From Pseudomonadota bacterium (GTDB taxonomy: Bacteria > Desulfobacterota > Desulfomonilia > Desulfomonilales > Desulfomonilaceae), in assembly GCA_043806215.1 (NCBI GenBank), contig JAZDHD010000402.1, forward strand, positions 3,661 to 67,660: 64,000 bases of DNA, given 5' to 3'. Positions 3,259-55,140 of this stretch are shown here, piece after piece (position 1 is the first letter of the stretch; every line of letters starts with the position of its first letter). Under the pieces are notes generated by a model. It did not search any database and was not told the DNA's origin. It worked only from the letters and a program-made list of their open reading frames with translations. A program made the position numbers and the translations under genes.

Positions 3259-4506
3259 ATGAAGGAAGTAACCATTGCAGCAGCGGTGAGAACCCCCGTG
3301 GGAAGGTACATGGGCTCACTCAAGGAGGTGCCTGCCTACGATCTTGCCGCACTGGTTCTGGACGAAGCCGTCAAACGTGCCGGAATCCCGCCGTCAATGG
3401 CGGACCAGGTCGTCATGGGGCAGGCCTACCAGAGTGGAGAGTACGTCAATATAGCCCGTATGGGTCTGCTCAAAGCCGGTTGGCCCGAAACCATCCCCGG
3501 CGTGACTCTGGACGCCCGTTGCTGTACCGGCCTCGATGTCGTCCGCTACGCGGCAGCCCTCATTGCATCCGACCAGGCGGACATCATCGTTGCAGGCGGC
3601 GTGGAAAGCATGAGCAACGCGGAATTCTATTTGCCGGGCAGCATGAAATGGGGGATCGGCGGCACCCGGGGAATGCCCAAGGGCCACGGCGACCTCTCAA
3701 TCTGGGGCGTTTCCCTGTACGACCGCATTCAAAGGGCCCGGGTGATGTCCCAGCCGGAGGAACGATACGGCATCCTCCCCGCCATGATGTCCTGGGCCGA
3801 GTCCGCGGCCGAGGAGCACAACATAACCCGCGGTCAATGCGACAAATGGTCCCTCGAAAGTCATCGCAAGGCCTGCGCGGCAATGGAAGCAGGGAAGTTC
3901 GCTGAAGAAATCGTCCCGGTAAGCGTCCCCCAACGCAGAGGGGATCCGATAATCGTGGATCGTGACGAGAATCCGAGGGCGGATACGACCCTTGAGGCAT
4001 TGGCTCGCCTCAAACCCGTGCTCGGCGGTGTCTGCACCGCGGGTAATTCATCCACCGAAAACGACGGCGCCGCTGCGGTGGTGGTCATGTCGGCTCCCAA
4101 GGCTCGGGATCTCGGCCTCCAACCGCTTGCTGTTCTCAAATCCTGTGCCTTCGTCGGCGACGATCCGCGAAGAACCTACCGGACGGTGCCTCGGGCCGCA
4201 CACAAAGCCTTGGACATGGCCGCGCTGTCTTTGCAGGACATCGATCTCATCGAAATCCAGGAGGCGTTCGCCGCCCAAGTCTTGGCCGATCTCGCGGAGA
4301 TGGGTATCGGGCCCGAAGACTATGCTCGAGTTAACGTCAACGGCTCGGGCATATCCCTCGGGCATCCCATAGCCTGCACCGGCGTGAGGGTCCTGGTGAG
4401 CTTGCTCCACGAAATGAAGAGACGCAACTCCCGGTACGGACTTGAATGCATCTGCGGCGGAGGCGGCCTTGGAATCGCGGCGGTTCTGGAAGGAATGGAC
4501 CATTAG
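3259..4506 (+). CDS. Thiolase family protein (acetyl-CoA C-acyltransferase-like)
   Basis: ORF 3142..4506 trimmed to the ATG at 3259 (GGAG 6 nt upstream). Motifs MKEVTIAAAVRTPVGRY, NGSGISLGHPIACTG and CICGGGGLG are present. Confidence 0.88.
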   Translation: MKEVTIAAAVRTPVGRYMGSLKEVPAYDLAALVLDEAVKRAGIPPSMADQVVMGQAYQSGEYVNIARMGLLKAGWPETIPGVTLDARCCTGLDVVRYAAALIASDQADIIVAGGVESMSNAEFYLPGSMKWGIGGTRGMPKGHGDLSIWGVSLYDRIQRARVMSQPEERYGILPAMMSWAESAAEEHNITRGQCDKWSLESHRKACAAMEAGKFAEEIVPVSVPQRRGDPIIVDRDENPRADTTLEALARLKPVLGGVCTAGNSSTENDGAAAVVVMSAPKARDLGLQPLAVLKSCAFVGDDPRRTYRTVPRAAHKALDMAALSLQDIDLIEIQEAFAAQVLADLAEMGIGPEDYARVNVNGSGISLGHPIACTGVRVLVSLLHEMKRRNSRYGLECICGGGGLGIAAVLEGMDH

Positions 4507-8589: not shown

Positions 8590-8850
8590 CAATTTCGATG
8601 GGGCAGTCGCCTGGGACTGTCCTATTACCTTGTCCGGTGGGAGGGGCGTCTCGCCTGTCCCCAGACCGTACGGGTCAAAGACCGGGCAGAGCCCGGAAAA
8701 CAGGCGTTCCCAGGCGGAGCCTGGGAACGAGAAGAACCGTGGGACGGGCGTCCCTGCCCGTCATCTTCAGGCCGGGGTTCGGGACAAGCAGACCGGTTCC
8801 CGGCCTACACCGGGAAGACGGCTCCGATTGTGCGACCATACCTATGAGAT
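8590..8850. repeat. Mosaic GC-rich intergenic repeat block
   Basis: Contains AAGACCGGGCAGAGCCCGG (reverse complement of the module at 75-95, 44575 and 45300), CGTTCCCAGGCGGAGCCTGGGAACG, GGGACGGGCGTCCCTGCCCGTCATCTTC, CCGGTTCCCGGCCTACACCGGGAAGACGG and TGTGCGACCATAC. Confidence 0.85.
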
Positions 8851-8860
8851 CGAGCACCTA

Positions 8861-9646
8861 CTATCTCTTCAGGGCCGCCAGCCGATCCGACACACTTGGC
8901 CGGAGCTGCAACGGAGAGTCACCAGAAACTGCCTTCAGAGCCGCTGCAACGTTGGAATCCTCGCTGTCGTGTTCGGGGCTCAACAGCTTTGCCTTCATGT
9001 CCGATGCCGCTGCTTTTGCCCGCGCTTCTTCTGCGGCCATATTCATGCCGGCCAGCGCTATCCCGAGATCGGATGCGTCTTTTCGCAAACCGGCAAGCTT
9101 CTCGGCCTTCGCTGCCTTCGCCGCGGCCTTCACCTCTTGCATCTTTGCTCTTTCCATATCGCGCTTGGCACGTTCGAGCGTCTCCCGGGCCGTCTTCACC
9201 TTCTCCGCGGTGATTCTCGCCACTTCCATGAGCTCGTTATAAAATTCCTTCGCCTCGACGGCCTCCCGGACTTCCCGCTCAAGCTCGGGTTTGAGCTTCT
9301 CCAGATCGTCAACGAGCCTGCTAATGCTGGATTCCAAGTCCGAAGCCTTTGCCGCGTTGCCGCCGGACTGAGCTTCCAGCATCTGTGATTCAAGCATCTG
9401 GGCTGCCGCGAGATGACGGTCATAGTTCTTTTGCGCAGCGTCGGCCTCTTTCTGTTCCTTGTCGAATTGCATTTTTGCCTTACCCGCTTCGCGAGTTATC
9501 TTGTCCAGTTCTCCGATCATGGACTCGATTTCAGCCTCGGTTGCCGTTTCCGGATCCCAAGCCACGATGCTGCGGGTGATGCTCTCGCCGATACTCCCAA
9601 TCTGCTTCTTTCCAAAAGTCGCAACAAAACCGAAAAGACCAGCCAT
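8861..9646 (-). CDS. Coiled-coil protein, PspA/IM30 (YjfJ-like) family candidate
   Basis: ATG at 9646 has GGGAGG 7 nt upstream. N-terminal amphipathic MAGLFGFVATFGKK is followed by a long heptad-rich Ala/Glu/Lys helix. The family call rests on remembered resemblance to E. coli PspA/YjfJ and the adjacent YjfK-like gene. Confidence 0.5.
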   Translation of the reverse strand: MAGLFGFVATFGKKQIGSIGESITRSIVAWDPETATEAEIESMIGELDKITREAGKAKMQFDKEQKEADAAQKNYDRHLAAAQMLESQMLEAQSGGNAAKASDLESSISRLVDDLEKLKPELEREVREAVEAKEFYNELMEVARITAEKVKTARETLERAKRDMERAKMQEVKAAAKAAKAEKLAGLRKDASDLGIALAGMNMAAEEARAKAAASDMKAKLLSPEHDSEDSNVAAALKAVSGDSPLQLRPSVSDRLAALKR

Positions 9647-13169: not shown

Positions 13170-13445
13170 ATTTCATAAGTTCGGTCACACATTGTCGTCT
13201 CATTGCCATGTTGGGTGCCGGCAAGAATAATATCCGGGCATCCCGCGCGGAACGCGGGACCGGGCTACGAAGGACTGTCATGAGGCCTTATACCTGTTTT
13301 GTGGGGTCCCGCGGAACGCGGGATGCCCGTCATCTTCAAGGGCGGGCGTCCAGCCCGTCTCCCCGGCGAAGGCCGGGGTCCAAGAAAGAAGACTGGATCC
13401 CGGCCTTCGCCGGGATGACGGCTCATGTTGTGCGACCGTACTTGT
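13170..13445. repeat. Mosaic GC-rich intergenic repeat block; its last module overlaps the 3' end of the DUF523 gene
   Basis: Modules CATCCCGCGCGGAACGCGGGAC, GGGGTCCCGCGGAACGCGGGATGCCCGTCATCTTC, GGCCGGGGTCCAAGAAAGAAGACTGGATCCCGGCC and TGTGCGACCGTACTTGTGCCATAGAAC are present. Confidence 0.85.
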
Positions 13446-13902
13446 GCCATAGAACACCAAGGGAATCTTCTTCCGTCAGAATGGGAATGCCGTAACGCCT
13501 GACCAGAGCGGTGGCTACGCCGCAACCGGGCTGCTTTTCGCCCTCGATGTCGACCCTGCGGACACCGCAGGAGGGACTACCCTCCTTGAACAGAATGAAT
13601 CGAGGGGCCGTCAGTTGCACTACCCGGTCAACCTCTTGGGCTCCACGCACAAAACAGGCAGTGCAATCCCTGCCTGTTTGATCCATGATCTTGGCAGTAC
13701 CCTCCAAGACCCGGAAACCGTCCCCTCCTACGAAACGGCAGATCGGCCGGGGAATGCCCAGGCCGCCAAGCACCTCCGGGCAGACAGGCACCACTATCAG
13801 GCGCTCCGTGAGTTCCGCCAATCGTGGATAGGTGTGTGCCCGGCCGTCGTAGCGGGTACGCAAACCCGCCAGGCAGGCACTCATGAGGATCGTTTCACGC
13901 AT
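13423..13902 (-). CDS. DUF523 family protein (2-thiouracil desulfurase-like)
   Basis: Motifs MSACLAGLRTRYDG and VCPEVLGGLGIPRP are typical of DUF523. Confidence 0.75.
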   Translation of the reverse strand: MRETILMSACLAGLRTRYDGRAHTYPRLAELTERLIVVPVCPEVLGGLGIPRPICRFVGGDGFRVLEGTAKIMDQTGRDCTACFVRGAQEVDRVVQLTAPRFILFKEGSPSCGVRRVDIEGEKQPGCGVATALVRRYGIPILTEEDSLGVLWHKYGRTT

Positions 13903-15262: not shown

Positions 15263-16600
15263 CTACAATTCTCGTCTTTCCCGCCCAATCTCCGAAGCCA
15301 CGGTCCGTGCACGTGCCATGAACTCGGCCTCGTCCACCGTCGTTATCCGGCCGTGATCCACCACCAGCTTGCCGTTGACGATCACGTCGCGCACATCCGA
15401 TCCCCGTGCCGCATAGACCAGATGCGATTCCGGGACATACATGGGCGTAAGGTGGGGCCGGTCGAGGTCGATCACGATCACGTCCGCGAGTTTGCCCTGC
15501 TCCAGAGATCCGATACTGTCCTCCATTCCCAGAACCCGGGCTCCGTCAATGCAGGCCATTCGAAGCACGGTCCGTGCATCCAGGGCCTCCGGGTCGCCGG
15601 TTATGAGCTTTGCCATGAGCGAGGCACTGCGCATCTCCTCGAAGAGGTCCAGATTATTGTTGCTTGCCGGGCTGTCCGTACCGATCCCCAGCGGAATTCC
15701 CCTCCCGAGGAGGTCCTGTGCATCACAGGCCCCCGAGGCAAGCTTCATGTTGCTTTCCGGGCAGTGGACCACTCCGGCTCCCGACTCCGCCAGCACTTCC
15801 TTTTCTCTTTCCGAAAGATGAACAGCGTGGACCGCAACAAAGCTCTTCTTCAGAATGTCGAGAGCGTGCAGGTGCTCCACCGGACCAAGGCCGTACCTGC
15901 CCGTGACCTCGGAGACCTCCGGCGAGGTCTCCGAGACATGACAAAAGAGTAAGGTGCCGTGTTCCTCGGCCAAGCCGGCTGCGTCACAAAGGGTCTCGGG
16001 GCCGCAGAGGTAAGCCGAATGGCAGAACAACGCCGGTGTGATCAGAGAGTCCCGGGGACAGGATGCTAGAAACTCTTTCACCCGTTGCTTCCAGGCCCCC
16101 GGGGTCGGCGCATCCGGAGCCGGCACATCGAGGATACCCTGAGCGATAACCGCCCTGATCCCGATATCCATAGCTGCCCGTGCGGCGTGTTCCATGTGGA
16201 AATATCCGTCCGCGAACGTGGTGACGCCGTTGAGAACCATCTCCATTGCGGAAATCATGGTCCCCAGATACACGAAGTCCGGTCCCACATGTTTGCTCTC
16301 CGAGGGGAAAATGAACTCGTTGAGCCACCGGTGAAGAGGAAGATCGTCGGCAAGGCCTCTGAGCAGACTCATCGCGGCATGGCTGTGCCCGTTGATCAAC
16401 CCGGGCATGATCAGACAGTTGGAACAGTCTATGATCCGGCCGCCGTGCGCTGCGTCCGCGTCCTGCGGCACGTTCACCTCGAGCAGGCGGTCGCCGGAAA
16501 TCACCGTCATTCCATGGGGGACGGTTCCGGTTCTTCCGGGCTCGGTGAGAATCATGCCTCCCACCAGAACCGTGTCCACCGAAGTGGGGCTTTCCGTCAT
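15263..16600 (-). CDS. mtaD: Amidohydrolase, 5-methylthioadenosine/S-adenosylhomocysteine deaminase-like
   Basis: Contains MPGLINGHSHAAMSLLRGLADDLPLHRWL (HxH metal site); length and layout fit MtaD/chlorohydrolase family. Confidence 0.8.
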   Translation of the reverse strand: MTESPTSVDTVLVGGMILTEPGRTGTVPHGMTVISGDRLLEVNVPQDADAAHGGRIIDCSNCLIMPGLINGHSHAAMSLLRGLADDLPLHRWLNEFIFPSESKHVGPDFVYLGTMISAMEMVLNGVTTFADGYFHMEHAARAAMDIGIRAVIAQGILDVPAPDAPTPGAWKQRVKEFLASCPRDSLITPALFCHSAYLCGPETLCDAAGLAEEHGTLLFCHVSETSPEVSEVTGRYGLGPVEHLHALDILKKSFVAVHAVHLSEREKEVLAESGAGVVHCPESNMKLASGACDAQDLLGRGIPLGIGTDSPASNNNLDLFEEMRSASLMAKLITGDPEALDARTVLRMACIDGARVLGMEDSIGSLEQGKLADVIVIDLDRPHLTPMYVPESHLVYAARGSDVRDVIVNGKLVVDHGRITTVDEAEFMARARTVASEIGRERREL

Positions 16601-16614
16601 CTATTGTGTTCCTT

Positions 16615-17135
16615 AATGCTTCGTTTCCTGATTACGGTCGCACATTTTCGTCTCGCAGCCGTCTCGGGTGCCGGCAAAAACAAGATCCGGGCACGGAGGC
16701 CCGGGCTACGAAGAACAGAGACCAAGCCGGTCGTACACCGTGGGACGGGCGTCCCTGCCCGTCATCTTCCCGGCGTAGGCCTATAGGCGTTAACTTAAGC
16801 CTGTTGGTCGGCGTGGACTTGGGTTCATTCATAACGTCCCGAAGGGACCCGTCCCGCGTCTCGCGGGATTAGCCGGGCCTTTCAAGCCCAGGAAGAACTT
16901 CCGGGGGATGAATCCCCCGGCTAAATTCCTAAGTGCCTTCGGCACATTAAGATTGCTGCATCTCAACACCGAGAACGGTGTGCATGCCTCGATTCGTGTG
17001 CCGGTTGAAGCACGGGTTGCCGGCCGGAATCCTTAAGTTAACGTCTATGGGCGCAGGCCGGGGTCCGGAAAAAACAGACTGGTTCCCGGCCTACGCCGGG
17101 AAGACGGTTCAGCTTGTGCGACCGTATTTACGCCT
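16615..17135. repeat. Mosaic GC-rich intergenic repeat block (about 520 bp)
   Basis: Contains TACGGTCGCACA (reverse complement of TGTGCGACCGTA), CCGGGCACGGAGGCCCGGGCTACGAAGAAC, GGGACGGGCGTCCCTGCCCGTCATCTTCC, CCGGGGGATGAATCCCCCGGCTAAATTCCTAAGTGCC (inverted copy at 36727-36775) and a GGCCGGGGTCCGG...GGTTCCCGGCC module. Confidence 0.85.
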
Positions 17136-17189
17136 GGGAGCCCCAAGCCGGCGCCCATACGAGTCTTGAAGATCTCCCTCCCCGGAAAT

Positions 17190-18707
17190 CTACTTCTCAA
17201 GTACTCCGTATAACCGGCACATCACCTCGTCTCTGGAAACGGCATCCCCGGCTCGGAACCGGCACCCTCCCCCGCACGATTCCGCGTGGTCACAGTCACG
17301 GCACAGGGTGGAATCAATGGGGATGTGTTCCGCTTTGGCCCAAGCTTTCGCCAGTCCCTCTAGTACTGAACCATAGCGCATATCCGGATAGAGACCGCAT
17401 CGGCACACGTCGCCCGAAGGGAGCACCGCTGCCAAATGCCGTCCGCAGGTCCATCCGGGGGAGGTGCCGTGGTACGAACCTCCAAAACCGTAGGCCATGG
17501 CTACGGCCGCGTCGTCGAGCCCTACGGCGAGATCGGGATGCGAAACCCGCCTGCCGGCAACGCAGGGATAGTCGATGCTCCATTCCCGCACACCCAGTTC
17601 GGTCATCAGATCCTTCATCCGCCCGAATTCGCCGAGGTTACCCCGATGCACCATGGTTGCCGCGGACAGATCCAAGCCCGCATTCTTCACTGCGTGCAAG
17701 GCCCTCAGCGCCTTCTTGAACGCTCCTTTGCCCCGAATCATGTCATGGCCTTCTTCCATACCGTCAAGGCTGATCTGCACCTCATGAAAGTGCAGTTTGG
17801 AGACGGCTCTATCGTCAAGGGTCAGTCCGTTGCTCAGGAGCACGGCACGAACGGGATAATCCGGCAGCAGGTTGTTGAGGACATCGAAGTGCGGGTACAA
17901 TGTGGGCTCGCCGCCCGAAACAAGGACCCTCAGACCCTGCATTTCGCTGAACTGCTCCAGCAGAGGCTCGATAAGATCAGGGGGGAAATCCGTGTTGCTT
18001 GATTCCCCGAGATAGCAGTGAGCGCACGACAGATTGCACCTATACGTGACCAACCATTCCAGGTAACGCAATGACGGTATCGGCGAGCGCCCCCGGTACA
18101 ACTTCCCGGGCCTCGCTTCGGGGAGAAACTCCAGGAGATCCTCATCCATGCAGACACACAGAAACGCCGGATCGGGGTTCAGTTGTCTCACCGTGTGTTC
18201 GCCGTTGCACCGGTTGAGCATCTCAAAGGCTTCTGCGTTGACCTCGTACAGTTCATCGTGCTTCACGTGATACAGATAGTGCTCTTCAAGGTTCTTGATT
18301 GCAGTCCGGGGGGTCAGGCCGAGCCGACTGTCGAGATTGCGCCCGATAAGGTCGATTTCTCGAACCGCTTCCTCCGAGAGAGTGCCTTCCCTGAGAAGGC
18401 CGGAGATCAGAACGAGTCCTCCGCACGGCCGACAATTCTCCGGTGGATGCAATGACGTGAAGTCACAATCGTTTACGAGAAAAGGGCATGCCGAGCACAC
18501 ATGGTCTCTCAGGAAAGATCTCTTGAAATCCGGATCGAAGGGGGTGTCCGAGGAAAGCACGGGGCGGGATGACGTCATCGAAGAGAAGACCGAGGTTAGC
18601 TCATAACCTCGGCACCGCTCCTCTTCGGATGAGTTTTGTTTGTAGTAATTGCAGTGGGGACGGCAAACCCAATCTTCCTGGTCGGACAACTCAGATTCAC
18701 CTCTCAT
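17190..18707 (-). CDS. Radical SAM/SPASM-type peptide maturase candidate with N-terminal 8-Cys module and PqqD-like RRE
   Basis: CX3CX2C motif YRCNLSCAHCY (Cys224/228/231). C-terminal Cys cluster GDVCRCG...CRDCDHAESCGGGCRFRA is SPASM or twitch-like. LYEVNAEAFEMLNRCNGEHTVRQL resembles the PqqD/RRE motif. Confidence 0.85.
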   Translation of the reverse strand: MRGESELSDQEDWVCRPHCNYYKQNSSEEERCRGYELTSVFSSMTSSRPVLSSDTPFDPDFKRSFLRDHVCSACPFLVNDCDFTSLHPPENCRPCGGLVLISGLLREGTLSEEAVREIDLIGRNLDSRLGLTPRTAIKNLEEHYLYHVKHDELYEVNAEAFEMLNRCNGEHTVRQLNPDPAFLCVCMDEDLLEFLPEARPGKLYRGRSPIPSLRYLEWLVTYRCNLSCAHCYLGESSNTDFPPDLIEPLLEQFSEMQGLRVLVSGGEPTLYPHFDVLNNLLPDYPVRAVLLSNGLTLDDRAVSKLHFHEVQISLDGMEEGHDMIRGKGAFKKALRALHAVKNAGLDLSAATMVHRGNLGEFGRMKDLMTELGVREWSIDYPCVAGRRVSHPDLAVGLDDAAVAMAYGFGGSYHGTSPGWTCGRHLAAVLPSGDVCRCGLYPDMRYGSVLEGLAKAWAKAEHIPIDSTLCRDCDHAESCGGGCRFRAGDAVSRDEVMCRLYGVLEK

Positions 18708-18743
18708 TGGGAAGTTTGGGATTGCCGGGCAACATTTCCGTTG

Positions 18744-18806
18744 TCAGCAGGAGCTCTTGCACTTGCACATGCCTTTGGTCGACTTGGTCACTTTCTTGAT
18801 TGTCAT
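18744..18806 (-). CDS. Small ORF (20 aa) MTIKKVTKSTKGMCKCKSSC; candidate precursor peptide
   Basis: Hand-translated; it is below the ORF-track size cut-off. GGGAGG lies 5 nt upstream of the ATG (complement 18812-18817). The stop is 36 nt before the radical SAM start on the same strand. Confidence 0.5.
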   Translation of the reverse strand: MTIKKVTKSTKGMCKCKSSC

Positions 18807-19041
18807 GAATGCCTCCCGTATGATTAAATCCGCTGAGTTCATGGTGGAGCACGGCACGGCCCGAGTCAAGGCGAACTTCGCCGGAAACAACAAAAAAGTT
18901 TAAGAGTAGCAGTCGGTTACGCTACATGTTACTCGGCGGATATGACAACCGTATACATGCCACACTGTGCTACGGACGTTACTTAGATACTATGCTCCAT
19001 CCGCGCTGCGCGCATGCCGGGGAACCGGGGCGGAGGTTGGG

Positions 19042-19377
19042 ATGAAATCGTTCGATGTAAGAGCACTCGCCGCGGATGAAGGCGGCGAGTACGTTTTGGG
19101 AATGAAGGACCTCGACACTCATGCATGTTACCTTATCTACGGCACGCTGCGGCCGGGCGAAGGAGGCAGACGGGTCGAGCCGGGCCACGGGCACGAGGAG
19201 ATACTCTGTGTCGTTTCCGGAACGCTGCTGATTCATGCACCGGGAGAGGACTTCACGCTGGAGACCGGCCATGCGGTACATGTCCGGGAAGACGGGTCCT
19301 TCGAGATTTCCAATCCCGGGCGGGAGGAAGCCGTCTACGTAATGGCCGGCGGGCACCCTCGGCCTCATCACCACTGA
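19042..19377 (+). CDS. Cupin domain protein
   Basis: ORF 18967..19377 trimmed to the ATG at 19042 (GGAGG upstream). GHGHEEILCVVSGTL...GHAVHV is a cupin two-motif pattern. Confidence 0.7.
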   Translation: MKSFDVRALAADEGGEYVLGMKDLDTHACYLIYGTLRPGEGGRRVEPGHGHEEILCVVSGTLLIHAPGEDFTLETGHAVHVREDGSFEISNPGREEAVYVMAGGHPRPHHH

Positions 19378-19404
19378 TTCGGGCGACGGACCGGCCGTCC
19401 TGCG

Positions 19405-20199
19405 TCAGCTTTTCTCGAATGCGATGACGGCCGCACCCAATGCTCCGACAATCTGAGGATCGACGATGTCGGGGAATCCGACGAACCTGCACTCGAGGAT
19501 CTCTTCGAGTGTTTCCACGACCCCTCTATTCTTCGCCACTCCTCCGGTGATGACGATTTCCTTCTCCATGCCCACCCTCTTTGCCAAGGTGCGTATCCTG
19601 TTGGCAACGGACTTGTGAAGCCCCTTGATTATGGAAGGGAGCGGAACTTCCTCGTTGATGAGATTGATGACTTCGGATTCCGCAAAGACGCTGCACATGC
19701 TGCTGATCATGGCCGGATCGCCTTCGCCGAAGTGCAGCCGTACCATGTCCTTGATCTCTAGATCCATGGACCTGGCCATAAAATCCAAGAATCTTCCGGT
19801 ACCGGCGGCACACTTGTCATTCATGACAAAATCCGCCACCAGCCCTTCATTGTCGATTCTGATGGCCTTGGTGTCCTGTCCCCCTATGTCGACCACGGTC
19901 CTCACTTCCGGGAGCAAATGATGAGCACCCCGTGCATGACAGGAGATTTCCGAGACGTTTTCATCCGCGAACTCGACTCTGGCCCGGCCGTATCCGGTAC
20001 CTATGACATACGCAACCTGCTCTCGGGTAATACCCGCGGATGAAAGAGCCCGTTCGAAGACGAGCCGGGCGGTCTTGCTCGGACTGACCGAGCTCGGTCC
20101 TATGGAATACGAGGCAATCTCTCCCCCCGAGAGTATGACGGCCTTGCTCGTGGATGATCCGATATCGATGCCTGCCGTTATTGTGTCTCCGTTGGCCAA
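19405..20199 (-). CDS. Activator ATPase of 2-hydroxyacyl-CoA dehydratase type (BadF/BadG/BcrA/BcrD family)
   Basis: The long ORF 19405..20745 overlaps the upstream gene. It is trimmed to the TTG at 20199, which has GGGAGGG 6 nt upstream. Motifs GIDIGSSTSKAV and NDKCAAGTGRFLD are present. Confidence 0.8.
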   Translation of the reverse strand: MANGDTITAGIDIGSSTSKAVILSGGEIASYSIGPSSVSPSKTARLVFERALSSAGITREQVAYVIGTGYGRARVEFADENVSEISCHARGAHHLLPEVRTVVDIGGQDTKAIRIDNEGLVADFVMNDKCAAGTGRFLDFMARSMDLEIKDMVRLHFGEGDPAMISSMCSVFAESEVINLINEEVPLPSIIKGLHKSVANRIRTLAKRVGMEKEIVITGGVAKNRGVVETLEEILECRFVGFPDIVDPQIVGALGAAVIAFEKS

Positions 20200-20215
20200 T
20201 TGTAACCCTCCCACG

Positions 20216-21529
20216 CTATTTGTGTTTGCGGGGCAGGACAATGTCTTCGGCAAAGCGCCTGAATTCCTGCTTAAGCGTTTCGACGGACGTGACCCGGGGA
20301 TCGAACAAGTCGAACTCGAAGATAAGCACCGGAATGTCGGCTTCTCTGAGCGCCTCCTTGAGCAGCCCGGCGATGCCCCACGCATGTTTGCACGATATGT
20401 GGCCTGCAATGAGAGCACAATCGGCCTTATACTCTCGTGCCGCACGGACCAGATCGTCGATGAAGTAATCCGGCAACCCCGTGAAGTGGCGTCCCATGGG
20501 CATGAAGATCTGCTTCCTGGCCAAATCGTGCAGGATGGTCTCGGGAGTGGAAGTGTCCACGTACATTTCAGGGACCACGTAACTGAACATGTCCACGGGA
20601 ACGACCATGCCCAGATCGTTTTCCATCCAGTCGTACAAGCCGATATTGAACCACGTGGGCGAACCGAACCATATGGCCCTGACTCTCTCTCCTCCCGGCG
20701 CTGCGGACTTACCCGCCAAAACCCGTTCCTTGGCATCCGCTGCATACTCGGAAGCCACCCAGGTCGCTCCCTTGGTCCCGGAACCGTCCTGGAGCAGGAT
20801 ATACATGGTCGAGAGCATTTTGCTCATCTGAGGACACGGGACCGTTTTGCGAAGGTCAAGCCATTCCAATGCCTGCTCGATCATCCGGTTGCTTTCCTCG
20901 CAGATCTCCTTCAGCCTGTCCCAGTTCAGTCTCTTTCCCGTCTTCTCTTCGAGGAATGTGATCTGATCCTTCAGTTGTCGGGCAACGTGCATGATCTCCC
21001 GCTCGCCGTGAAGGTGCGGGATATCGATCAGAAAGACGTCCTCGCCGGTCTGCTCTTTGATGGTCTCGGCAAGTACCGTTTGGCTGTCGCACGGAGCGGT
21101 TACGAAAACCGAACAGGTAATTTCGGGAAGGAACTTCTTGGCCAGGTTCCCGAGTGTGGCCCTGTCCGCGGAACACACGTCGCTGCTCATTCCTTGGGAC
21201 TCGGCGATTTCCATGGCTTCTATGTTGTACTGGTAATCGCCGACCAATGATTGGAGAGCGACAACCTTCTCCATGGCAAAGGGAAATACCTCATTCTCGT
21301 TGTCCCCCAGTGCGAGCAGGATCTCCGGTATTCCTCCAAGATTGTAGGAGACTACCGGCACTCCGCTGTCCAGCGCGGCCGCAATTCCCTCCGTGGCCAT
21401 TTTGGCGGCCAGAAGAAACGCATTGAAGGCCCTTGAGTCCGGATCTCCCTGGTGGCGCTCCATCAGTCGGTTCACACCTTCATATATGGTTTCAAGCTCC
21501 TTGCCCCGGTCTTTTCCCAGCACCGTCAT
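20216..21529 (-). CDS. 2-hydroxyacyl-CoA dehydratase / benzoyl-CoA reductase B/C-family subunit (HGD-D family)
   Basis: 437 aa. ATGA overlap with the upstream subunit. Family-typical layout with conserved Cys (SDVCSADR, APCDSQ, HISCKH). Confidence 0.75.
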   Translation of the reverse strand: MTVLGKDRGKELETIYEGVNRLMERHQGDPDSRAFNAFLLAAKMATEGIAAALDSGVPVVSYNLGGIPEILLALGDNENEVFPFAMEKVVALQSLVGDYQYNIEAMEIAESQGMSSDVCSADRATLGNLAKKFLPEITCSVFVTAPCDSQTVLAETIKEQTGEDVFLIDIPHLHGEREIMHVARQLKDQITFLEEKTGKRLNWDRLKEICEESNRMIEQALEWLDLRKTVPCPQMSKMLSTMYILLQDGSGTKGATWVASEYAADAKERVLAGKSAAPGGERVRAIWFGSPTWFNIGLYDWMENDLGMVVPVDMFSYVVPEMYVDTSTPETILHDLARKQIFMPMGRHFTGLPDYFIDDLVRAAREYKADCALIAGHISCKHAWGIAGLLKEALREADIPVLIFEFDLFDPRVTSVETLKQEFRRFAEDIVLPRKHK

Positions 21530-22680
21530 CGCACGGCCCCTTTCTTGGATTTGGACTCGATGTTTTCAATGAACGCCTGTACCCGTGTCTTCACCTGGCC
21601 GTATCCGCCCGCCAAGTACTCGCGGTCGAGCACCAGGGTGGGTAGGCCGTTTTCCCGGCCGCGACGGATGAAGTTGTACAGATGGCCGGCATTGATGACG
21701 CACTGTTTCATGCGCTGCGCGATCAGGCCGTCCGCCTTGTAGGCCTGTTTGATCCGCTCGATGTTGGCGTAGCGGGGTGAAAAGCTGTTAAACATCCTGG
21801 CACACGGCACTCGATAGAAGTATCTCTCCGCGATCTTGTCGAGGGGATCTCCGTCTTCGGCCACGAGTTCTTCGTAGAACCTGGCTCCGAAACACGTGTC
21901 CTCGTACACCACCAGTCCGCCCTGCTCTTCTATTGCTTTCAGGAACTCGGGTTCATCCAGTTCCCCGCCGGTAACGATAAAGCGTGCCCTGTAGTTTCGC
22001 GGTTCCTCACCGCCGGCTGTTGCATCGAGGAGTTCACCGGCCAATTCATCGAAGTCCTTCAGCGGCATCAGATGAGCTGCCACCGTTACGGTAAGGGCTT
22101 CGCTTCCGCTGAGCGGAGGGTTGGATCCCCTTCTCAGTTCGTTGAGTTCGATCAGCTTTGTACGGACGGCATTGTGCAGGCCGATTGCTTCGCGCAACTC
22201 GTCCGGTCCGATCTTCACCTGGAAATCCTTTTCCATGGCGGCGATCAGATTCTCCAGTTCCTCCTTGTACCAGGAGAACAGTCTTTCCTCCGCGGCGCGA
22301 GGCACGGAAAGAAACGCATGAAACGGGATTTTGCTCTTCTGCTTCAGGACGTCGTGCGCCCTCCTCGCCTGATCGCAGCCATTCATACAGACTACCCCGG
22401 ACAGGAAGTCGAATTGTCCCTCCAGCGCCAGATTGACGGTATGCCTTACAAACGTGCAGACATTGGAGCTCATATGCACGTCGGCCAGGCCCGTGTCGTC
22501 GCTTCCCGCTCCCCTTATCCGGTACGGTACCATACCTGCGGCGGTCAATATTTCTCCCGGTATCAGGGTGCAGTAGTAGCCGCACACCTTCCCTCCTCCG
22601 GAAATCCATCCATCGAGATAGGTGTTGCGCGGTTTCTGCACAACCTGCTGAAATAGTCTCAATACTTCGGCCTTGTCCAT
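21526..22680 (-). CDS. 2-hydroxyacyl-CoA dehydratase-family subunit (HGD-D family)
   Basis: 384 aa. GGKVCGYYCTLIPGEILTAAGMVPYRI is the characteristic N-terminal motif. Further Cys at NVCTF, NGCDQ and DTCFGAR. Confidence 0.8.
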   Translation of the reverse strand: MDKAEVLRLFQQVVQKPRNTYLDGWISGGGKVCGYYCTLIPGEILTAAGMVPYRIRGAGSDDTGLADVHMSSNVCTFVRHTVNLALEGQFDFLSGVVCMNGCDQARRAHDVLKQKSKIPFHAFLSVPRAAEERLFSWYKEELENLIAAMEKDFQVKIGPDELREAIGLHNAVRTKLIELNELRRGSNPPLSGSEALTVTVAAHLMPLKDFDELAGELLDATAGGEEPRNYRARFIVTGGELDEPEFLKAIEEQGGLVVYEDTCFGARFYEELVAEDGDPLDKIAERYFYRVPCARMFNSFSPRYANIERIKQAYKADGLIAQRMKQCVINAGHLYNFIRRGRENGLPTLVLDREYLAGGYGQVKTRVQAFIENIESKSKKGAVR

Positions 22681-22683
22681 ATC

Positions 22684-23451
22684 TCAGTCTCCCTGAGCTT
22701 TGATAAGGATGTCGGTGATTTTTCTCACCGACTCCAGGATTGGCGAATCGGCTGGAAGGTCAAAAACTGATCGGCCAAGGGCATCGTTCCTCAGCAATCC
22801 CTCATCCTCGGGAATCACGCCCCACGTAAGATCGCGGAGATGTTGTGAGGAAAGGTCGGCATCCCCGCCCAGGTCTTGCCTGCGATTCAGAACGACTCCC
22901 AATCGGGCCTTCATGCCCAATTCACGCACCACCCGGACGATCAGGTCCATGGAGTGCCTGCTTCTCAGTGAGTTGTCCACGAGCACGACAATGGTGTCCA
23001 CAACCGACATGACTTCCCTGTTGATCTGTTCGATTCCGGCTTCCGCGTCCAGCAGCACCACGTCATAGTCCTGGGCGATGTTCTTGACGGATTCCTTCAA
23101 CAACGTGTTGAGGGGACAAAAACAGCCTCTGGAAAGAGGCCTCCCCATTGCCAGGAAACTGAGGTTCTCCGTTTCCGTAAGCGCCTCCAGCATCAGGTAA
23201 TCCATAATCCCGGCGATTTGTTCAGGATTGCGGTCTCTACGGGCCCTTTGTATGAGATCATCCCTGACTTGCCCGAGTGTCTTGATATCGGCGGACAATC
23301 CCACGAAATAGGACAGTCCCAGCGCCGGGTCGGCATCCACTGCGAGAACCCTGAGACCCCGTTCCGCCAGCACCCTGACGACGGCACCGCTGAAAACGGT
23401 CTTACCCACACCTCCTTTACCGCATACGGCAATAACGGTTTGGTTCCCCAT
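22684..23451 (-). CDS. CooC/AcsF-type P-loop ATPase (Ni-insertion accessory protein family)
   Basis: ORF trimmed to the ATG at 23451. Deviant Walker A VCGKGGVGKT, plus RGCFCP (the CXC metal-binding motif I associate with CooC). Confidence 0.7.
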   Translation of the reverse strand: MGNQTVIAVCGKGGVGKTVFSGAVVRVLAERGLRVLAVDADPALGLSYFVGLSADIKTLGQVRDDLIQRARRDRNPEQIAGIMDYLMLEALTETENLSFLAMGRPLSRGCFCPLNTLLKESVKNIAQDYDVVLLDAEAGIEQINREVMSVVDTIVVLVDNSLRSRHSMDLIVRVVRELGMKARLGVVLNRRQDLGGDADLSSQHLRDLTWGVIPEDEGLLRNDALGRSVFDLPADSPILESVRKITDILIKAQGD

Positions 23452-23459
23452 GGTTTTCC

Positions 23460-24206
23460 CTACACCCGTTTCTTCTTCCTCGTTATCGCAACCGCATCTT
23501 TCAGAACCCGGCAAACCTGGTTTTCCGGGCATTCGTTACAATCCACCCCGCTTGTGCACTCGCCCATCTCCCTTATCTCGGCCCTGTACCGATCTCTCTT
23601 CTCCTCGGCCACTCTTTCGGCAGTCGGCCGCAGCATCTCGATATGATTCGCGTCGGAAGAGATAAGGATCACGTTGGCTTTGGTGAACATGTGGCGATCC
23701 TTAAAGATTTCTGCAACAAGTCGCCGACCGATTGCCGCCAGGGTGATGCCGTGATCCAGGGCTTCTTGACGAACCCGAAGCCACATCTTGTCGAGAGCCG
23801 CCCTTGCCGTCACTCCCTGAAAACGGTCACAGACGGAGAGTTTTCCGGACAGAGCCCGCCTGCTGCGCTCGTCGGCCTCAACGACCTCCGCAAGGACGAT
23901 GAGGGCAAAGGGGTGACGCCCGGGAGCGAGCTCGTGGAGTTCGCCGCCCAGGACCAATACCCCGTTATCCCCTATCAGACCGTTTGTCCGCGTGATCAAA
24001 CAGAGGCAGATGGAAGGCGTGGATGGATGCCCCAATTCGAGGACCGTATTCCCGGCGCCGATGATGCGGCGGGGAGCCTCGCCTCTGCACGGGCTCTCGT
24101 CTTCAATACCGGGAAAGACCCGGTAGCGCCGGGCCGGCACCCCTGCCTTTTCCAGTGCCTCCGCCGGCATCTTGATTTCCGCTATGAAGCGACCGTCGTC
24201 CGACAT
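23460..24206 (-). CDS. Short acetyl-CoA synthase (ACS/CdhC) beta-subunit-like protein; middle domain plus start of the cluster-binding Cys motif
   Basis: 248 aa. The segments DNGVLVLGGELHELAPGRHPFALIV, WLRVRQEALDHGITLAAIGRRLVAEIFK, VILISSDANHIE...EEKRDRYR and CTSGVDCNECPENQVC parallel the ACS central region as I remember it. A CooC gene is adjacent. Confidence 0.45.
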   Translation of the reverse strand: MSDDGRFIAEIKMPAEALEKAGVPARRYRVFPGIEDESPCRGEAPRRIIGAGNTVLELGHPSTPSICLCLITRTNGLIGDNGVLVLGGELHELAPGRHPFALIVLAEVVEADERSRRALSGKLSVCDRFQGVTARAALDKMWLRVRQEALDHGITLAAIGRRLVAEIFKDRHMFTKANVILISSDANHIEMLRPTAERVAEEKRDRYRAEIREMGECTSGVDCNECPENQVCRVLKDAVAITRKKKRV

Positions 24207-36609: not shown

Positions 36610-37330
36610 AGGCGGTCCTTGTCCGCAGTTGAGGCTCCCGAGCCCCGACAGGGGCGGCCGAATGTATCACATCACACAACTCATTGGATGCACACAGTTT
36701 TCGGGCTTCGTAAGTCCGCGATCTTGATGTGCTGAAGGCACTTAGGAATTTAGCCGGGGGATTAATCCCCCGGAAGAACGGGATAAAGCGAGCAGGATTT
36801 CCGTCCCGAAGGGACGGCGCACGTGGACGCATTCACAATGGAGAGCATTCCGGCGTCCCTTCAGAAAGCGTTGTGAATGTTCGGCCGCCAAGGCTTCCGG
36901 GCCTTGAAAGGCCCGGCTAGCATCGCGTGCCCCTCCGGGACGTTAAGGCTCCCGAGCCTCGACAAGGGCGGCCGAATGTAAGCCGGCATGGGCACCCACA
37001 GGGGGGCGCCCCTACACCATGCCGCCGTCTTGCTGCCGAAGCCCCCCCCCATGGCCGCACATCCTCTTCAATGGGACCCAGCGCCTCGCTAGGTCGTCTT
37101 CCTTCCGTCATCCCGGCGCGGGCCCGTCCAGGATTCATTCCACAATGGAGGCAGAGCCTCCGGCCAGGCATTCCAAGGCGGAGCCCGGGAACGAGATAGG
37201 TAGGGGCGACCGGTGGTCGCCCGCGGAACGCGGGAATGCCATTCGCCCGTTGTGTGTTAATACCAGGTACTGATTTCACCGCGGGCACGGCACGCCGTGC
37301 CCCTACACCGTGGCGGCGAACGGAGGCCGG
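36610..37330. repeat. Mosaic GC-rich intergenic repeat block (about 720 bp) between convergent genes
   Basis: Holds inverted copies of the 16868-16950 modules, CCCACAGGGGGGCGCCCCTACA, GGTAGGGGCGACCGGTGGTCGCCCGCGGAACGCGGGAATGCC and CCAGGCATTCCAAGGCGGAGCCCGGGAACGAG. Confidence 0.85.
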
Positions 37331-44499: not shown

Positions 44500-44885
44500 C
44501 TGAAGAGGGTGTCCCGCCATGGGGGGTCCCTTTCCTTCTCGTTCCCAGGCTCCTGCCTTGGAATGCATGTCCTCCGGGCTCTGCCCGGTCTTGGTGGGAC
44601 TCCCGCGTTCGGCGCGGGATGCCCGTCTTCTTCCGGATCTCATGCAGTGCTTGCCTTCTCGATTTCCGGGCACGGAGGCCCGGGCTACGGAAGAACTCAC
44701 CGACATGCCTCTTGCCTTCGTGGGACTCCCGCGTTCTGCGCGGGATGCCCGTCTCTTCCGGATCTCATGCAGCTGCTTGCCTTCCCGGTTTCCGGGCACG
44801 GAGGCCCGGGCTACGGAAGAACTCACCGACATGACTCTTGCCTTCGTGGGACTCCCGCGTTCTGCGCGGGATGCCCGTCTTCTTC
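44500..44885. repeat. Mosaic repeat block including about 2.3 tandem copies of a 125/126-bp unit (44595, 44720, 44846)
   Basis: The unit GTGGGACTCCCGCGTTC(G/T)GCGCGGGATGCCCGTC...CCGGGCACGGAGGCCCGGGCTACGGAAGAACTCACCGACATG.CTCTTGCCTTC repeats with only a few substitutions. Confidence 0.9.
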
Positions 44886-45189
44886 ACGCGTTCTTCATCG
44901 CCCAAGTCTTTCGGAAGCGGTATATGCGTTTGGAAAGCCACCCAACGGCAACGAGGAATGCAATGATTCCAACGAGAACCGACAGATTTGCAATCGTCGT
45001 GGGAACCAGAGGCCTCAAGAATTCCTGGCACACGGAGATAAGATAGGAAAAGGGCCAAATGAGAGCCACAAAAGGAATGGCCCGGTCGATGAACGTTGCA
45101 TGGATCTCCTCTTCTCCCGATTCCTCGGACCAGATGGTTTCCGGAATCCCGCAGCAGGATTGTTCCTTGTCTTCATGTATCGCCGGCAT
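44884..45189 (-). CDS. Hypothetical small membrane protein (two predicted TM helices)
   Basis: 101-aa ORF with hydrophobic stretches AIPFVALIWPFSYLISV and IANLSVLVGIIAFLVAVGWL. The DNA is AT-richer and wedged between two repeat blocks. AGGAA-type RBS. Confidence 0.4.
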   Translation of the reverse strand: MPAIHEDKEQSCCGIPETIWSEESGEEEIHATFIDRAIPFVALIWPFSYLISVCQEFLRPLVPTTIANLSVLVGIIAFLVAVGWLSKRIYRFRKTWAMKNA

Positions 45190-45214: not shown

Positions 45215-45605
45215 ATCTTCCGTGAACAGGCCGGGCCTATTCGGCCGTATTGTTCCTTCCTCTCGTTCCCAGGCTCCTGCCTGGGAATGCCTATCCACCG
45301 GGCTCTGCCCGGTCTTCGGCCCGGAACACCGAGGGATCTTCATGGTCGGTTGTGATCCCGGAACCATGGAGGTTTGTGCCCTTAACACTTAGTGCTCCAC
45401 GGCGCAAATACGGTGTCGTATCCAAGGCAGCAAAGCCCGCTTTGGTAGCGCCGGCTCCGTGCCGGATTGGTAGGGGTAGGCCCCTGTGCCTACCCATGGG
45501 CACCCACAGGGGGGTGCCCCTACAAAGACGCCCGGCAGCGACGCCGGGACGCTACCGCGTGTTCACTGAATGTGCGACCGTATTTATGCCATAGAGCACT
45601 TAGCT
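45215..45605. repeat. Mosaic repeat block containing an about 215-bp MITE-like element (45388-45603)
   Basis: A second copy lies at 54937-55145 with a nearly identical core of about 125 bp. CTTAG/CTAAG motifs sit at both ends. Confidence 0.85.
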
Positions 45606-45609
45606 GCGT

Positions 45610-54514: not shown

Positions 54515-55140
54515 TTCTTGATTCCCGCTCCGGGAATCCTCCCCGGGGAGATTGAGACCGGAAAAAAACGGGCACGGAGGGCCGGGCTGCGGAAGAACTC
54601 ACCGACATCCCACCTGCCTCTGTTGGACGGGCGTCCCGTCTCTTCCGGATCTCATGCAGCTGCAAGCCTTCCCAATTTCCGGGCACGGAGGCCCGGGCTA
54701 CGAAAGACAGAGACCAAGCCCGTCGTACATAGTGGGACTCCCGCGTTCTGCGCGGGATGCCCGTCATCTTCCGGGGCTCAGGTTGTGCGACCGCATTTAT
54801 GCCCTAGAACCCATAGTGACCGTCCCGAAATAGACGTTGCACATGGGCGGGAGTGCCGCCTCGTAGGGGCTCGGCGTGCCGCGCCCGCAGAACGAAAAGG
54901 TTCCGCGAGATCGAACCGTTTATTCTGAGACGAACCCTAAGTGCTCCGTGGCAGTGTCACATTTGTGGCGATTATCCCTGCTTTGGTAGCGCCGGCCTCC
55001 GTGCCGGATTGGTAGGGGTAGGCCCCTGTGCCGACCCATGGGCACCCACAGGGGGGTGCCCCTACAAACACGCCCGGCAGGGACGCCGGGACGCTACCGA
55101 GCGTTTACGGAATCCGTGACCGTATTTATGCCCTAGAACC
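54515..55140. repeat. Mosaic GC-rich repeat block (about 625 bp) containing the second about 210-bp MITE-like copy (54937-55145)
   Basis: Shares the CGGGCACGGAGG(G)CCGGGCT(G/A)CGGAAGAACTCACCGACAT, GGGACTCCCGCGTTCTGCGCGGGATGCCCGTC and CCCACAGGGGGGTGCCCCTACA modules with 44500-45605. Confidence 0.88.

Follow-up and report, generated by a model that had tools for sequence, protein, structure and literature searches.

A 20-codon gene beside a radical SAM/SPASM enzyme in a Desulfomonilaceae contig: a candidate minimal peptide maturation system

Can a reading frame of 20 codons, too short for gene callers to report, encode the dedicated substrate of the enzyme whose gene follows it? A locus in contig JAZDHD010000402.1 (assembly GCA_043806215.1, Desulfomonilaceae) raises this question. 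Within the 64,000-nt stretch that we analysed (contig positions 3,661 to 67,660, hereafter the window), an earlier note made from the sequence alone had pointed to a Lys- and Cys-rich 20-codon frame directly upstream of a gene for a radical S-adenosylmethionine (SAM) enzyme with a SPASM domain, and had proposed a minimal peptide-modification locus. Our comparison of this locus with its relatives suggests that the two genes very probably form a minimal ribosomal peptide maturation system, with the 20-mer as the substrate of the enzyme. The maturation of short precursors by radical SAM (rSAM)-SPASM enzymes that depend on a recognition element (RRE) for peptides that are made by the ribosome and modified after translation (RiPPs) is already known as a kind, and many uncharacterised rSAM-peptide families exist; the peptide family, a seven-cysteine (7-Cys) domain of the enzyme and a cupin partner appear to be undescribed.

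The peptide gene and its conservation

Read directly, the minus strand of the window carries an ATG at 18806..18804 that begins a frame of 20 codons with a TGA stop at 18746..18744 and the product MTIKKVTKSTKGMCKCKSSC, just as the frame had been translated by hand before. The GGGAGG previously placed 5 nt before this ATG is there as well, at 18817..18812. The peptide is strongly basic and contains no Glu, no Tyr and no aromatic residue; its residues 1-13 form a putative leader with a conserved M-x-I-[KR]-K-V, and residues 14-20 a conserved core, C-K-C-K-x-S-C. Between the peptide stop and the ATG of the sole long open reading frame (ORF) downstream on the strand, the 505-aa ORF 17190..18707(-), lie 36 nt (18743..18708). 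This spacer agrees with the one given earlier when it is counted from ATG 18707, but the true enzyme start is probably the in-frame TTG 18689, after GAGAGGTGA, since the start is called so in an 84%-identical orthologue (P0002); translation from there would give 499 aa and lengthen the spacer to 54 nt.

Upstream of the peptide gene, a TTGACT-17-CACCAT block is common to the window and its closest relative (locus L162), and the intergenic DNA around it has diverged. The -10 element of this putative promoter is weak and did not pass a consensus scan. A scan of 16400..19600 with Rfam models found no riboswitch or leader 5' of the peptide gene.

We compared the locus with 98 related loci, of which 16 came from species-representative genomes, 80 from a metagenome scan and 2 from exact orthologue look-ups. 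The genome scan relied on a generic rSAM pattern and picked up mainly unrelated rSAM loci; the metagenome scan was hence seeded with a family-specific N-terminal alignment. In the pattern used to search for peptides, nothing was fixed beyond the three cysteines and a loose basic motif. A locus was counted as well flanked when more than 1.2 kb lay on both sides of the enzyme (n = 39).

Peptides of the same family lie beside the enzyme relatives in about 83 of the 98 loci and in 37 of the 39 well-flanked ones, and most loci that lack a peptide are contigs ending inside or right beside the enzyme gene. Peptide length is 20 residues except in three loci (18 residues in one, 21 in two), and the peptides share the consensus M-[KT]-I-[KR]-K-V-x-[KR]-x-x-[KRS]-G-L-C-K-C-K-x-[ST]-C. 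The 21-residue Actinomycetota form ends ...CKCNKSCG, with a Gly after the last Cys and an Asn replacing K17. Residues I3, K5, V6, G12, L13, K15, K17 and S19, all of them outside the search pattern, are near-invariant.

At the DNA level, 74 distinct sequences encode 61 distinct peptides. Synonymous codons are free to vary (G12, for example, is encoded by GGT, GGG, GGC and GGA), and TAA, TGA and TAG are all used at codon 21. Across the 74 sequences the ratio of nonsynonymous to synonymous differences (pN/pS) was 0.31, with pS saturated at 0.86. Because the residues are near-invariant while their codons vary freely, this pattern indicates that the 20-codon gene is under purifying selection at the protein level. 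A GGAGG-type Shine-Dalgarno sequence also stands 5-10 nt 5' of the peptide ATG in nearly every related locus. Both checks that the earlier note had proposed for the small gene, conservation with selection on its codons in orthologous loci and a conserved translation signal, thus came out in its favour.

In L162 the peptide is MTIKKVAKLSKGMCKCKSSC with a TAA stop, differing from that of the window in three variable residues and the stop codon. A 46-aa gene has been called there on the opposite strand to the 20-codon gene (3790-3930, minus strand of that locus); this call is likely a mis-annotation hiding the real small gene, and it exemplifies how gene callers miss the peptide gene.

The genes occur in three orders. 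In 34 loci, which are of the window type (architecture A), the peptide gene is followed by a fused enzyme of ~500 aa; in 25 (B), it is followed by a ~120-aa Cys-rich gene and then a gene for a ~390-aa protein with RRE-like, rSAM and SPASM domains; and in 20 (C), of Nitrospirota and Actinomycetota types, a ~385-aa enzyme comes first and the peptide lies downstream. Desulfobacterota-type loci have the peptide upstream of the enzyme, and one type-C locus (L008) encodes a 7-Cys protein divergently. Gaps between peptide and enzyme are mostly 1-100 nt. The linkage of the two genes is tight and survives the change in gene order, and the locus shows what a RiPP system is recognised by: a conserved short precursor gene co-located with a modifying enzyme.

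Carriers are anaerobes that belong to the Desulfobacterota (Syntrophaceae, Desulfobacterales, Geobacteraceae), Nitrospirota and Actinomycetota. One further contig was binned to Geoglobus, and the adjoining gene on it encodes an archaeal-type PheT (phenylalanyl-tRNA synthetase beta chain). Across these carriers, which span three or more bacterial phyla and one archaeal lineage, the core heptapeptide hardly varies. Antimicrobial RiPPs seldom show such invariance, which is typical of peptide-derived cofactors, such as pyrroloquinoline quinone (PQQ) and mycofactocin, or of essential small proteins.

The earlier note had recognised no family for the peptide, and NCBIfam and Pfam scans of the 20-mer likewise gave none. 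An exact look-up of 10 of the peptide sequences in 15 billion proteins found no copy, and a full-text literature search with the core motifs (among them CKCKSSC and GLCKCK) and with rSAM/SPASM/cupin combinations returned no description of the peptide family. Among curated NCBIfam and Pfam families, none covers the peptide, the 7-Cys domain or, as an equivalog, the enzyme.

The enzyme, its domains and its neighbours

Orthologues of the enzyme, each of ~500 aa and 38-84% identical to it, number more than 100. Its CNLSCAHC motif (C224/C228/C231) and the C-terminal set of auxiliary-cluster cysteines, both noted before, are present. With an invariant CX3CX2C and 60.6 bits against PF04055 (cut-off 29.5), the protein belongs to the radical SAM superfamily. 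The C-terminal set follows the canonical seven-Cys SPASM pattern (C421-x10-G432-x4-C437, C469-x2-C472-x5-C478-x3-C482, C497), which is invariant in all 75 orthologues aligned, and TIGR04085 is matched with 31.8 bits against a cut-off of 27; the Pfam SPASM model PF13186 gave weak matches in 6 of the 75. No named NCBIfam family reaches its cut-off with the enzyme. The best is MftC (86.3 bits against 265), followed, again below cut-off, by NirJ, AhbD, ScmE, WgkB, SbtM, PqqE and anSME.

An AlphaFold2 (AF2) model built from the 75 orthologues had a predicted local distance difference test score (pLDDT) of 91.9 and a predicted template modelling score (pTM) of 0.88. In a Foldseek search of the PDB, SkfB (6efn) was the top match (E 9e-15), with TigE, anSME, BlsE, PqqE and ChlB among the further ones, and SuiB (5v1t) was aligned over 456 columns, nearly all of that protein including its N-terminal RRE. 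The best PDB relatives by sequence are SkfB, BlsE, PqqE and CteB. In the model, residues ~126-205 (module 128-195) form short strands followed by helices. At the level of the fold, the model agrees with the domain logic of an RRE-rSAM-SPASM maturase, which the earlier note had read from motifs, and in its architecture the enzyme resembles RRE-dependent rSAM-SPASM peptide maturases. The earlier note had also suggested looking for linkage to a protein-sized substrate; no sulfatase or other substrate of this kind is linked to the orthologues. A reading of the enzyme as a sulfatase maturase was rejected on its low scores and the lack of sulfatase neighbours.

The first ~125 residues, overlooked in the earlier note, stand out in the alignment as a distinct and novel domain. 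Its invariant residues are C15, C19, C32, C71, C74, C81 and C95, followed by G96, and the cysteines are equally invariant in the stand-alone ~120-aa genes; type-B loci and L008 encode the domain as a gene of its own. Neither Pfam nor NCBIfam matches it, and searched alone against the PDB with Foldseek it gave no match with E <4. When residues 1-221 were compared by phmmer with 1.84 billion cluster representatives, 185 clusters were retrieved at E <=0.001, most of which are stand-alone proteins of ~110-125 aa. The domain presumably binds a metal or an Fe-S cluster. As a separate observation, one 1805-aa protein (P0155) has 14 separate stretches that match the C-x2-C-x6-C...PCGG half of the domain (query residues 73-102); elsewhere the motif thus also occurs as a tandemly repeated module.

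Table 1 Features of the peptide locus, in window coordinates
Feature	Position	Strand	Basis
Precursor peptide gene	18744..18806	-	Direct read; family peptides near orthologous enzyme; pN/pS 0.31
Shine-Dalgarno GGGAGG	18812..18817	-	5 nt 5' of peptide ATG; GGAGG-like at equal distance in almost all related loci
Putative sigma-70-type promoter, TTGACT (18869..18864)-17 nt-CACCAT (18846..18841)	18841..18869	-	Inferred; block conserved with L162
Radical SAM/SPASM peptide maturase (putative)	17190..18707	-	505 aa from ATG 18707; PF04055 E 2.7e-16; orthologues; AF2; Foldseek
N-terminal helical domain, residues 1-125	18333..18707	-	Seven invariant Cys in 75 fused orthologues
RRE/PqqD-like peptide-recognition domain (putative), residues ~126-205	18093..18332	-	AF2 model; SuiB alignment; weak PqqD matches
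Radical SAM cluster motif CNLSCAHC, C224-x3-C228-x2-C231	18015..18038	-	Invariant in 75 orthologues
SPASM domain, residues 421-497	17217..17447	-	Seven invariant Cys, for two auxiliary [4Fe-4S] clusters; TIGR04085
Small cupin, divergent	19042..19377	+	111 aa from ATG 19042; Cupin_2 E 5.9e-07

Across the related loci three neighbours alone recur: the peptide, a small cupin and the 7-Cys domain, whether fused to the enzyme or encoded separately. Cupin homologues flank the enzyme in 31 related loci, usually directly downstream of it, and are found in 13 of 18 well-flanked loci of the fused type; the divergent arrangement of the window is seen again in L001, L081, L161 and L162. In the cupin alignment H28, Y31, R44, H52, E54 and H106 are invariant, C30 and E53 are near-invariant, and the C-terminus is His-rich (HPRPHHH). 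The H, C, H, E/E, H set may form a metal site. This cupin, also overlooked before, is a probable accessory component of the peptide system. The earlier note had reported no adjacent protease or exporter, and the wider sample agrees: no exporter, leader peptidase, sulfatase cluster or immunity gene recurs near the peptide across clades.

Several other genes accompany the system in single clades. A second rSAM gene (~368 aa) follows the cupin in L099 (3022-4128), L100 (4725-5831) and L104 (7198-8301), and its best match is a tungsten-cofactor-oxidoreductase rSAM maturase (163 bits against a cut-off of 380). In one Nitrospirota-type clade (L141-L160; 5284-6195 in L151), a 303-aa ATP-grasp-like protein with only weak family matches (RimK and GAK-grasp, E ~5e-4) is encoded directly after the peptide gene, and NifS and NifU are encoded divergently upstream. 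The ATP-grasp-like protein may be a lineage-specific tailoring enzyme, for example one that ligates a group to the C-terminus or to a lysine. A ClpX-like ATPase is found in the clade nearest the window. We rejected the ClpX-like protein, Lon, NifS/NifU, the ATP-grasp-like protein and the second rSAM as parts of the system, each being clade-specific and all being absent from the window.

A link to the amidohydrolase (15263..16600), PurM or 2-hydroxyacyl-CoA dehydratase genes of the window was likewise rejected, as none recurs beside the enzyme and only L162 shares the dehydratase genes. Between the enzyme gene and the amidohydrolase gene lie ~590 nt of dispersed repeats, and since these precede the next gene, the unit in the window consists of the peptide, the enzyme and the divergent cupin. 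On the far side of the cupin, a cluster at 19405-23532 (minus strand) encodes a BcrAD/BadFG-type activator, two 2-hydroxyacyl-CoA dehydratase-like subunits and a protein that, as judged by eye, is a CooC-like ATPase. On the same side, L162 has called HGD-D and BcrAD_BadFG genes, and the cluster is not kept beside the peptide system in other clades.

Dispersed intergenic repeats of ~40-100 nt, resembling repetitive extragenic palindromes (REP) or miniature inverted-repeat transposable elements (MITE), occur throughout the window (sites include 1887-1927, 8764-8864, 13365-13464, 17050-17150, 45562-45606 and 54775-54819), and tandem copies spaced 126 nt apart lie at 44594-44902. The repeat-filled region downstream of the rSAM gene holds a match to the Rfam small RNA Acido-Lenti-1 (RF01687) at 16901-16946 on the plus strand (37.4 bits against a gathering score of 37). 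The 59-nt element around this match has an inverted copy, 93% complementary, at 36718-36776, ~20 kb away.

Candidate chemistry, role and rival readings

How might such a system work? A promoter 5' of 18806 would drive a two-gene transcript encoding the peptide and then a four-domain enzyme, in the order 7-Cys domain, RRE-like domain, radical SAM core and SPASM domain. The RRE-like domain would bind the N-terminal M-x-I-[KR]-K-V of the peptide as an added beta-strand, which would bring the core G-L-C-K-C-K-x-S-C into the active site, with the SAM cluster on one side and the first auxiliary cluster on the other. Once SAM is cleaved reductively, the resulting 5'-deoxyadenosyl radical would abstract a hydrogen atom from the core, leading to one or more intramolecular cross-links at cysteines, most likely thioethers (sactionine or ranthionine); the thiolate would be held, and the electron accepted, by the auxiliary clusters. 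Additional Fe-S or metal centres probably sit in the 7-Cys domain, where they would help to supply electrons or to handle the substrate, and the His-rich cupin probably acts on the modified peptide or loads metal onto it.

We propose thioether formation tentatively, with somewhat less than even confidence. It is favoured because SkfB, the nearest relative by structure and by sequence, and CteB both form thioethers, and because Cys-rich cores paired with SPASM enzymes usually end as thioethers (sactipeptides or ranthipeptides).

Several observations weigh against the scheme or parts of it. The type of reaction cannot be read from an rSAM-SPASM sequence, and the nearest families, MftC, NirJ and AhbD, differ widely in chemistry. 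The core has no classic acceptor pattern, and the Gly after the last Cys in Actinomycetota argues against any chemistry that needs a C-terminal Cys. The PqqD-like segment LYEVNAEAFEMLNRCNGEHTVRQL, on which the earlier note had based peptide recognition, lies in a region with a consistent fold, but its support by sequence is suggestive only: the sole NCBIfam match of the RRE-like region is PqqD at a sub-threshold E of 0.13, over residues 153-177 and exactly on this segment; Pfam PqqD is matched weakly in 5 of the 75 members (best E 0.013); and a profile of the RRE-like segment retrieved nothing meaningful from PDB sequences. Five loci (L004, L007, L120, L124 and L127) have the enzyme seemingly without a local peptide, though in L004 the contig may stop short of the usual peptide position. 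Fewer than half of the well-flanked loci, 17 of 39, have the cupin.

One alternative keeps the peptide as substrate and changes the chemistry, to formylglycine formation with Lys condensation, a thio-oxazole, a C-C cross-link or a C-terminal modification, for which anSME (Cys to formylglycine), SbtM (thio-oxazole) and MftC (C-terminus) are candidate models. We consider this unlikely on balance, though it has some points in its favour. K15 and K17 are as invariant as the cysteines, hinting at a chemical role for the lysines; anSME is among the best fold matches (target-normalised template modelling score up to 0.65); MftC is the best NCBIfam match (86 bits); and SbtM has the same layout, its rSAM core beginning at about residue 200 of a 516-position model. 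Yet the sequence scores of anSME, MftC and SbtM fall far below the family cut-offs, the peptide has no C/S-x-P-x-R sulfatase motif, and the top match by fold and sequence is the thioether-forming SkfB. The Actinomycetota ending CKCNKSCG, with Asn in place of K17 and a last Cys that does not end the peptide, speaks against it too.

A second alternative, which we regard as quite improbable, sees the peptide as a Cys-rich partner subunit: the rSAM enzyme would act on a small molecule, for instance a tetrapyrrole or metal cofactor, and the peptide might donate metal or Fe-S to it or regulate it. The tetrapyrrole enzymes NirJ and AhbD do rank high in NCBIfam, some loci have the second rSAM that resembles a tungsten-cofactor oxidoreductase maturase, NifS and NifU adjoin in one clade, and the cupin resembles a metal-binding protein. 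But the RRE-like domain is fused to the enzyme, the fold of the whole enzyme is nearest to peptide maturases, and the conserved N-terminal motif of the peptide, which contains no Cys, resembles a leader; NifSU, the second rSAM and the ATP-grasp-like protein are clade-restricted and absent from the window.

The last reading takes the small ORF for a chance ORF or for a regulatory one, either an upstream ORF or a leader peptide (for example for cysteine-sensing attenuation). We find it hardly credible: the ORF does lie directly 5' of the enzyme gene on the same strand in the window, but residue-level conservation with free synonymous change across phyla would be unexpected for an attenuator, a strong Shine-Dalgarno sequence of its own stands in nearly every locus, no Rfam element lies upstream, and a leader-peptide or attenuator role is excluded because the peptide is downstream of the enzyme in 20 loci.

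Returning to the peptide as the enzyme's substrate, we consider it more likely that the product has a conserved intracellular function, as a metal-binding or redox cofactor-like peptide, than that it is an antibiotic. This role is favoured because the precursor is single-copy, its core hardly changes between phyla, the genes conserved around it include no exporter, protease or immunity gene, and a His-rich cupin is frequent. The conservation and the lack of an exporter or protease also fit the earlier note, which had likened the locus to PqqA/PqqE or MftA/MftC rather than to a bacteriocin locus. A bolder proposal, which we think unlikely as it stands, is that the modified 20-mer is a true peptide-derived cofactor or metal-binding prosthetic peptide of strict anaerobes. 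By the same speculative account, its maker would be a single rSAM-SPASM enzyme in which the 7-Cys domain is a new kind of Fe-S domain, and the His-rich cupin would handle the product. It might then be a counterpart of PQQ and mycofactocin, kept from Archaeoglobi to Desulfobacterota, Nitrospirota and Actinomycetota and overlooked because its gene is too short to call.

The locus points to a peptide family that annotation pipelines leave unannotated, together with a dedicated radical SAM enzyme. Should the product prove to be a cofactor or metallopeptide, the metabolism of Nitrospirota, of syntrophs and of organisms that reduce sulfate and metals would gain a new component; were it merely a cross-linked peptide, the system would still offer a compact model for RRE recognition of a 13-residue leader. 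To our knowledge, the peptide, with its leader of that length, would be among the shortest RiPP precursors. In either case, the system is a clean experimental target with unusually deep conservation.

Comparison with known systems

Among characterised systems, those of the sactipeptides and ranthipeptides (SkfA/SkfB, CteA/CteB, SCIFF/ScfB, PapA/PapB) likewise pair an rSAM-SPASM enzyme bearing an N-terminal RRE (putative in the enzyme of the window) with a short Cys-containing precursor, and SkfB is the best match here by both sequence and fold, with CteB also matched. The enzyme nevertheless scores far below the cut-offs of these families (StsB, 60.9 bits against 625; the PapB, SCIFF and AlbA models also below), and it has the extra 7-Cys domain, for which there is no known fold. 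The precursor described here is also much shorter, at 20 aa, and near-invariant across phyla, and no exporter or protease is conserved near it.

SuiA/SuiB, which makes streptide with its Lys-Trp cross-link, can be aligned in structure more completely than any other match, over 456 columns that take in the RRE, rSAM and SPASM parts of SuiB, and also acts on a short Lys-containing peptide. Identity is only 12-13%, and our peptide lacks an aromatic residue. Streptide loci are regulated by quorum sensing and include an exporter.

The thio(seleno)oxazole maturase SbtM (TIGR04082) is of similar size, with ~200 residues before the rSAM core (model positions 200-336 of 516). SbtM has a Cys/Sec-rich substrate and occurs in anaerobic organisms of the Desulfobacterota type. 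The enzyme of the window differs in its score (62 bits against a cut-off of 350), in the family of its precursor and in the 7-Cys domain, which finds no match. From anaerobic sulfatase maturases (TIGR03942) it is set apart by 45.4 bits against 349, by neighbourhoods in which no sulfatase recurs and by a peptide without the C/S-x-P/A-x-R motif.

Mycofactocin (MftA/MftB/MftC) and PQQ (PqqA/PqqD/PqqE) biosynthesis differ from the present system in their details. The enzyme falls outside both MftC (TIGR03962, 86.3 bits against 265) and PqqE (TIGR02109, 55.9 against 381). The peptide ends in CKCKSSC rather than the ...GVY of MftA, with no mft genes nearby, and lacks the E-x3-Y motif of PqqA; its core in the window has neither Tyr nor Glu and is built solely from Cys, Lys and Ser. 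The peptide is accompanied neither by a peptidase such as MftE or PqqF nor by a set of downstream tailoring genes, and the RRE-like domain is fused to the enzyme here, whereas the RRE is a separate gene there. In their plan, these systems are nonetheless alike. MftC is the top NCBIfam match of the enzyme and PqqE one of its fold matches. Each system has a very short, highly conserved precursor (~23 aa for PqqA and ~30 aa for MftA) served by one rSAM-SPASM enzyme and a PqqD-type recognition module (putative in the window), and our data suggest that they may also share a conserved intracellular rather than antibiotic role.

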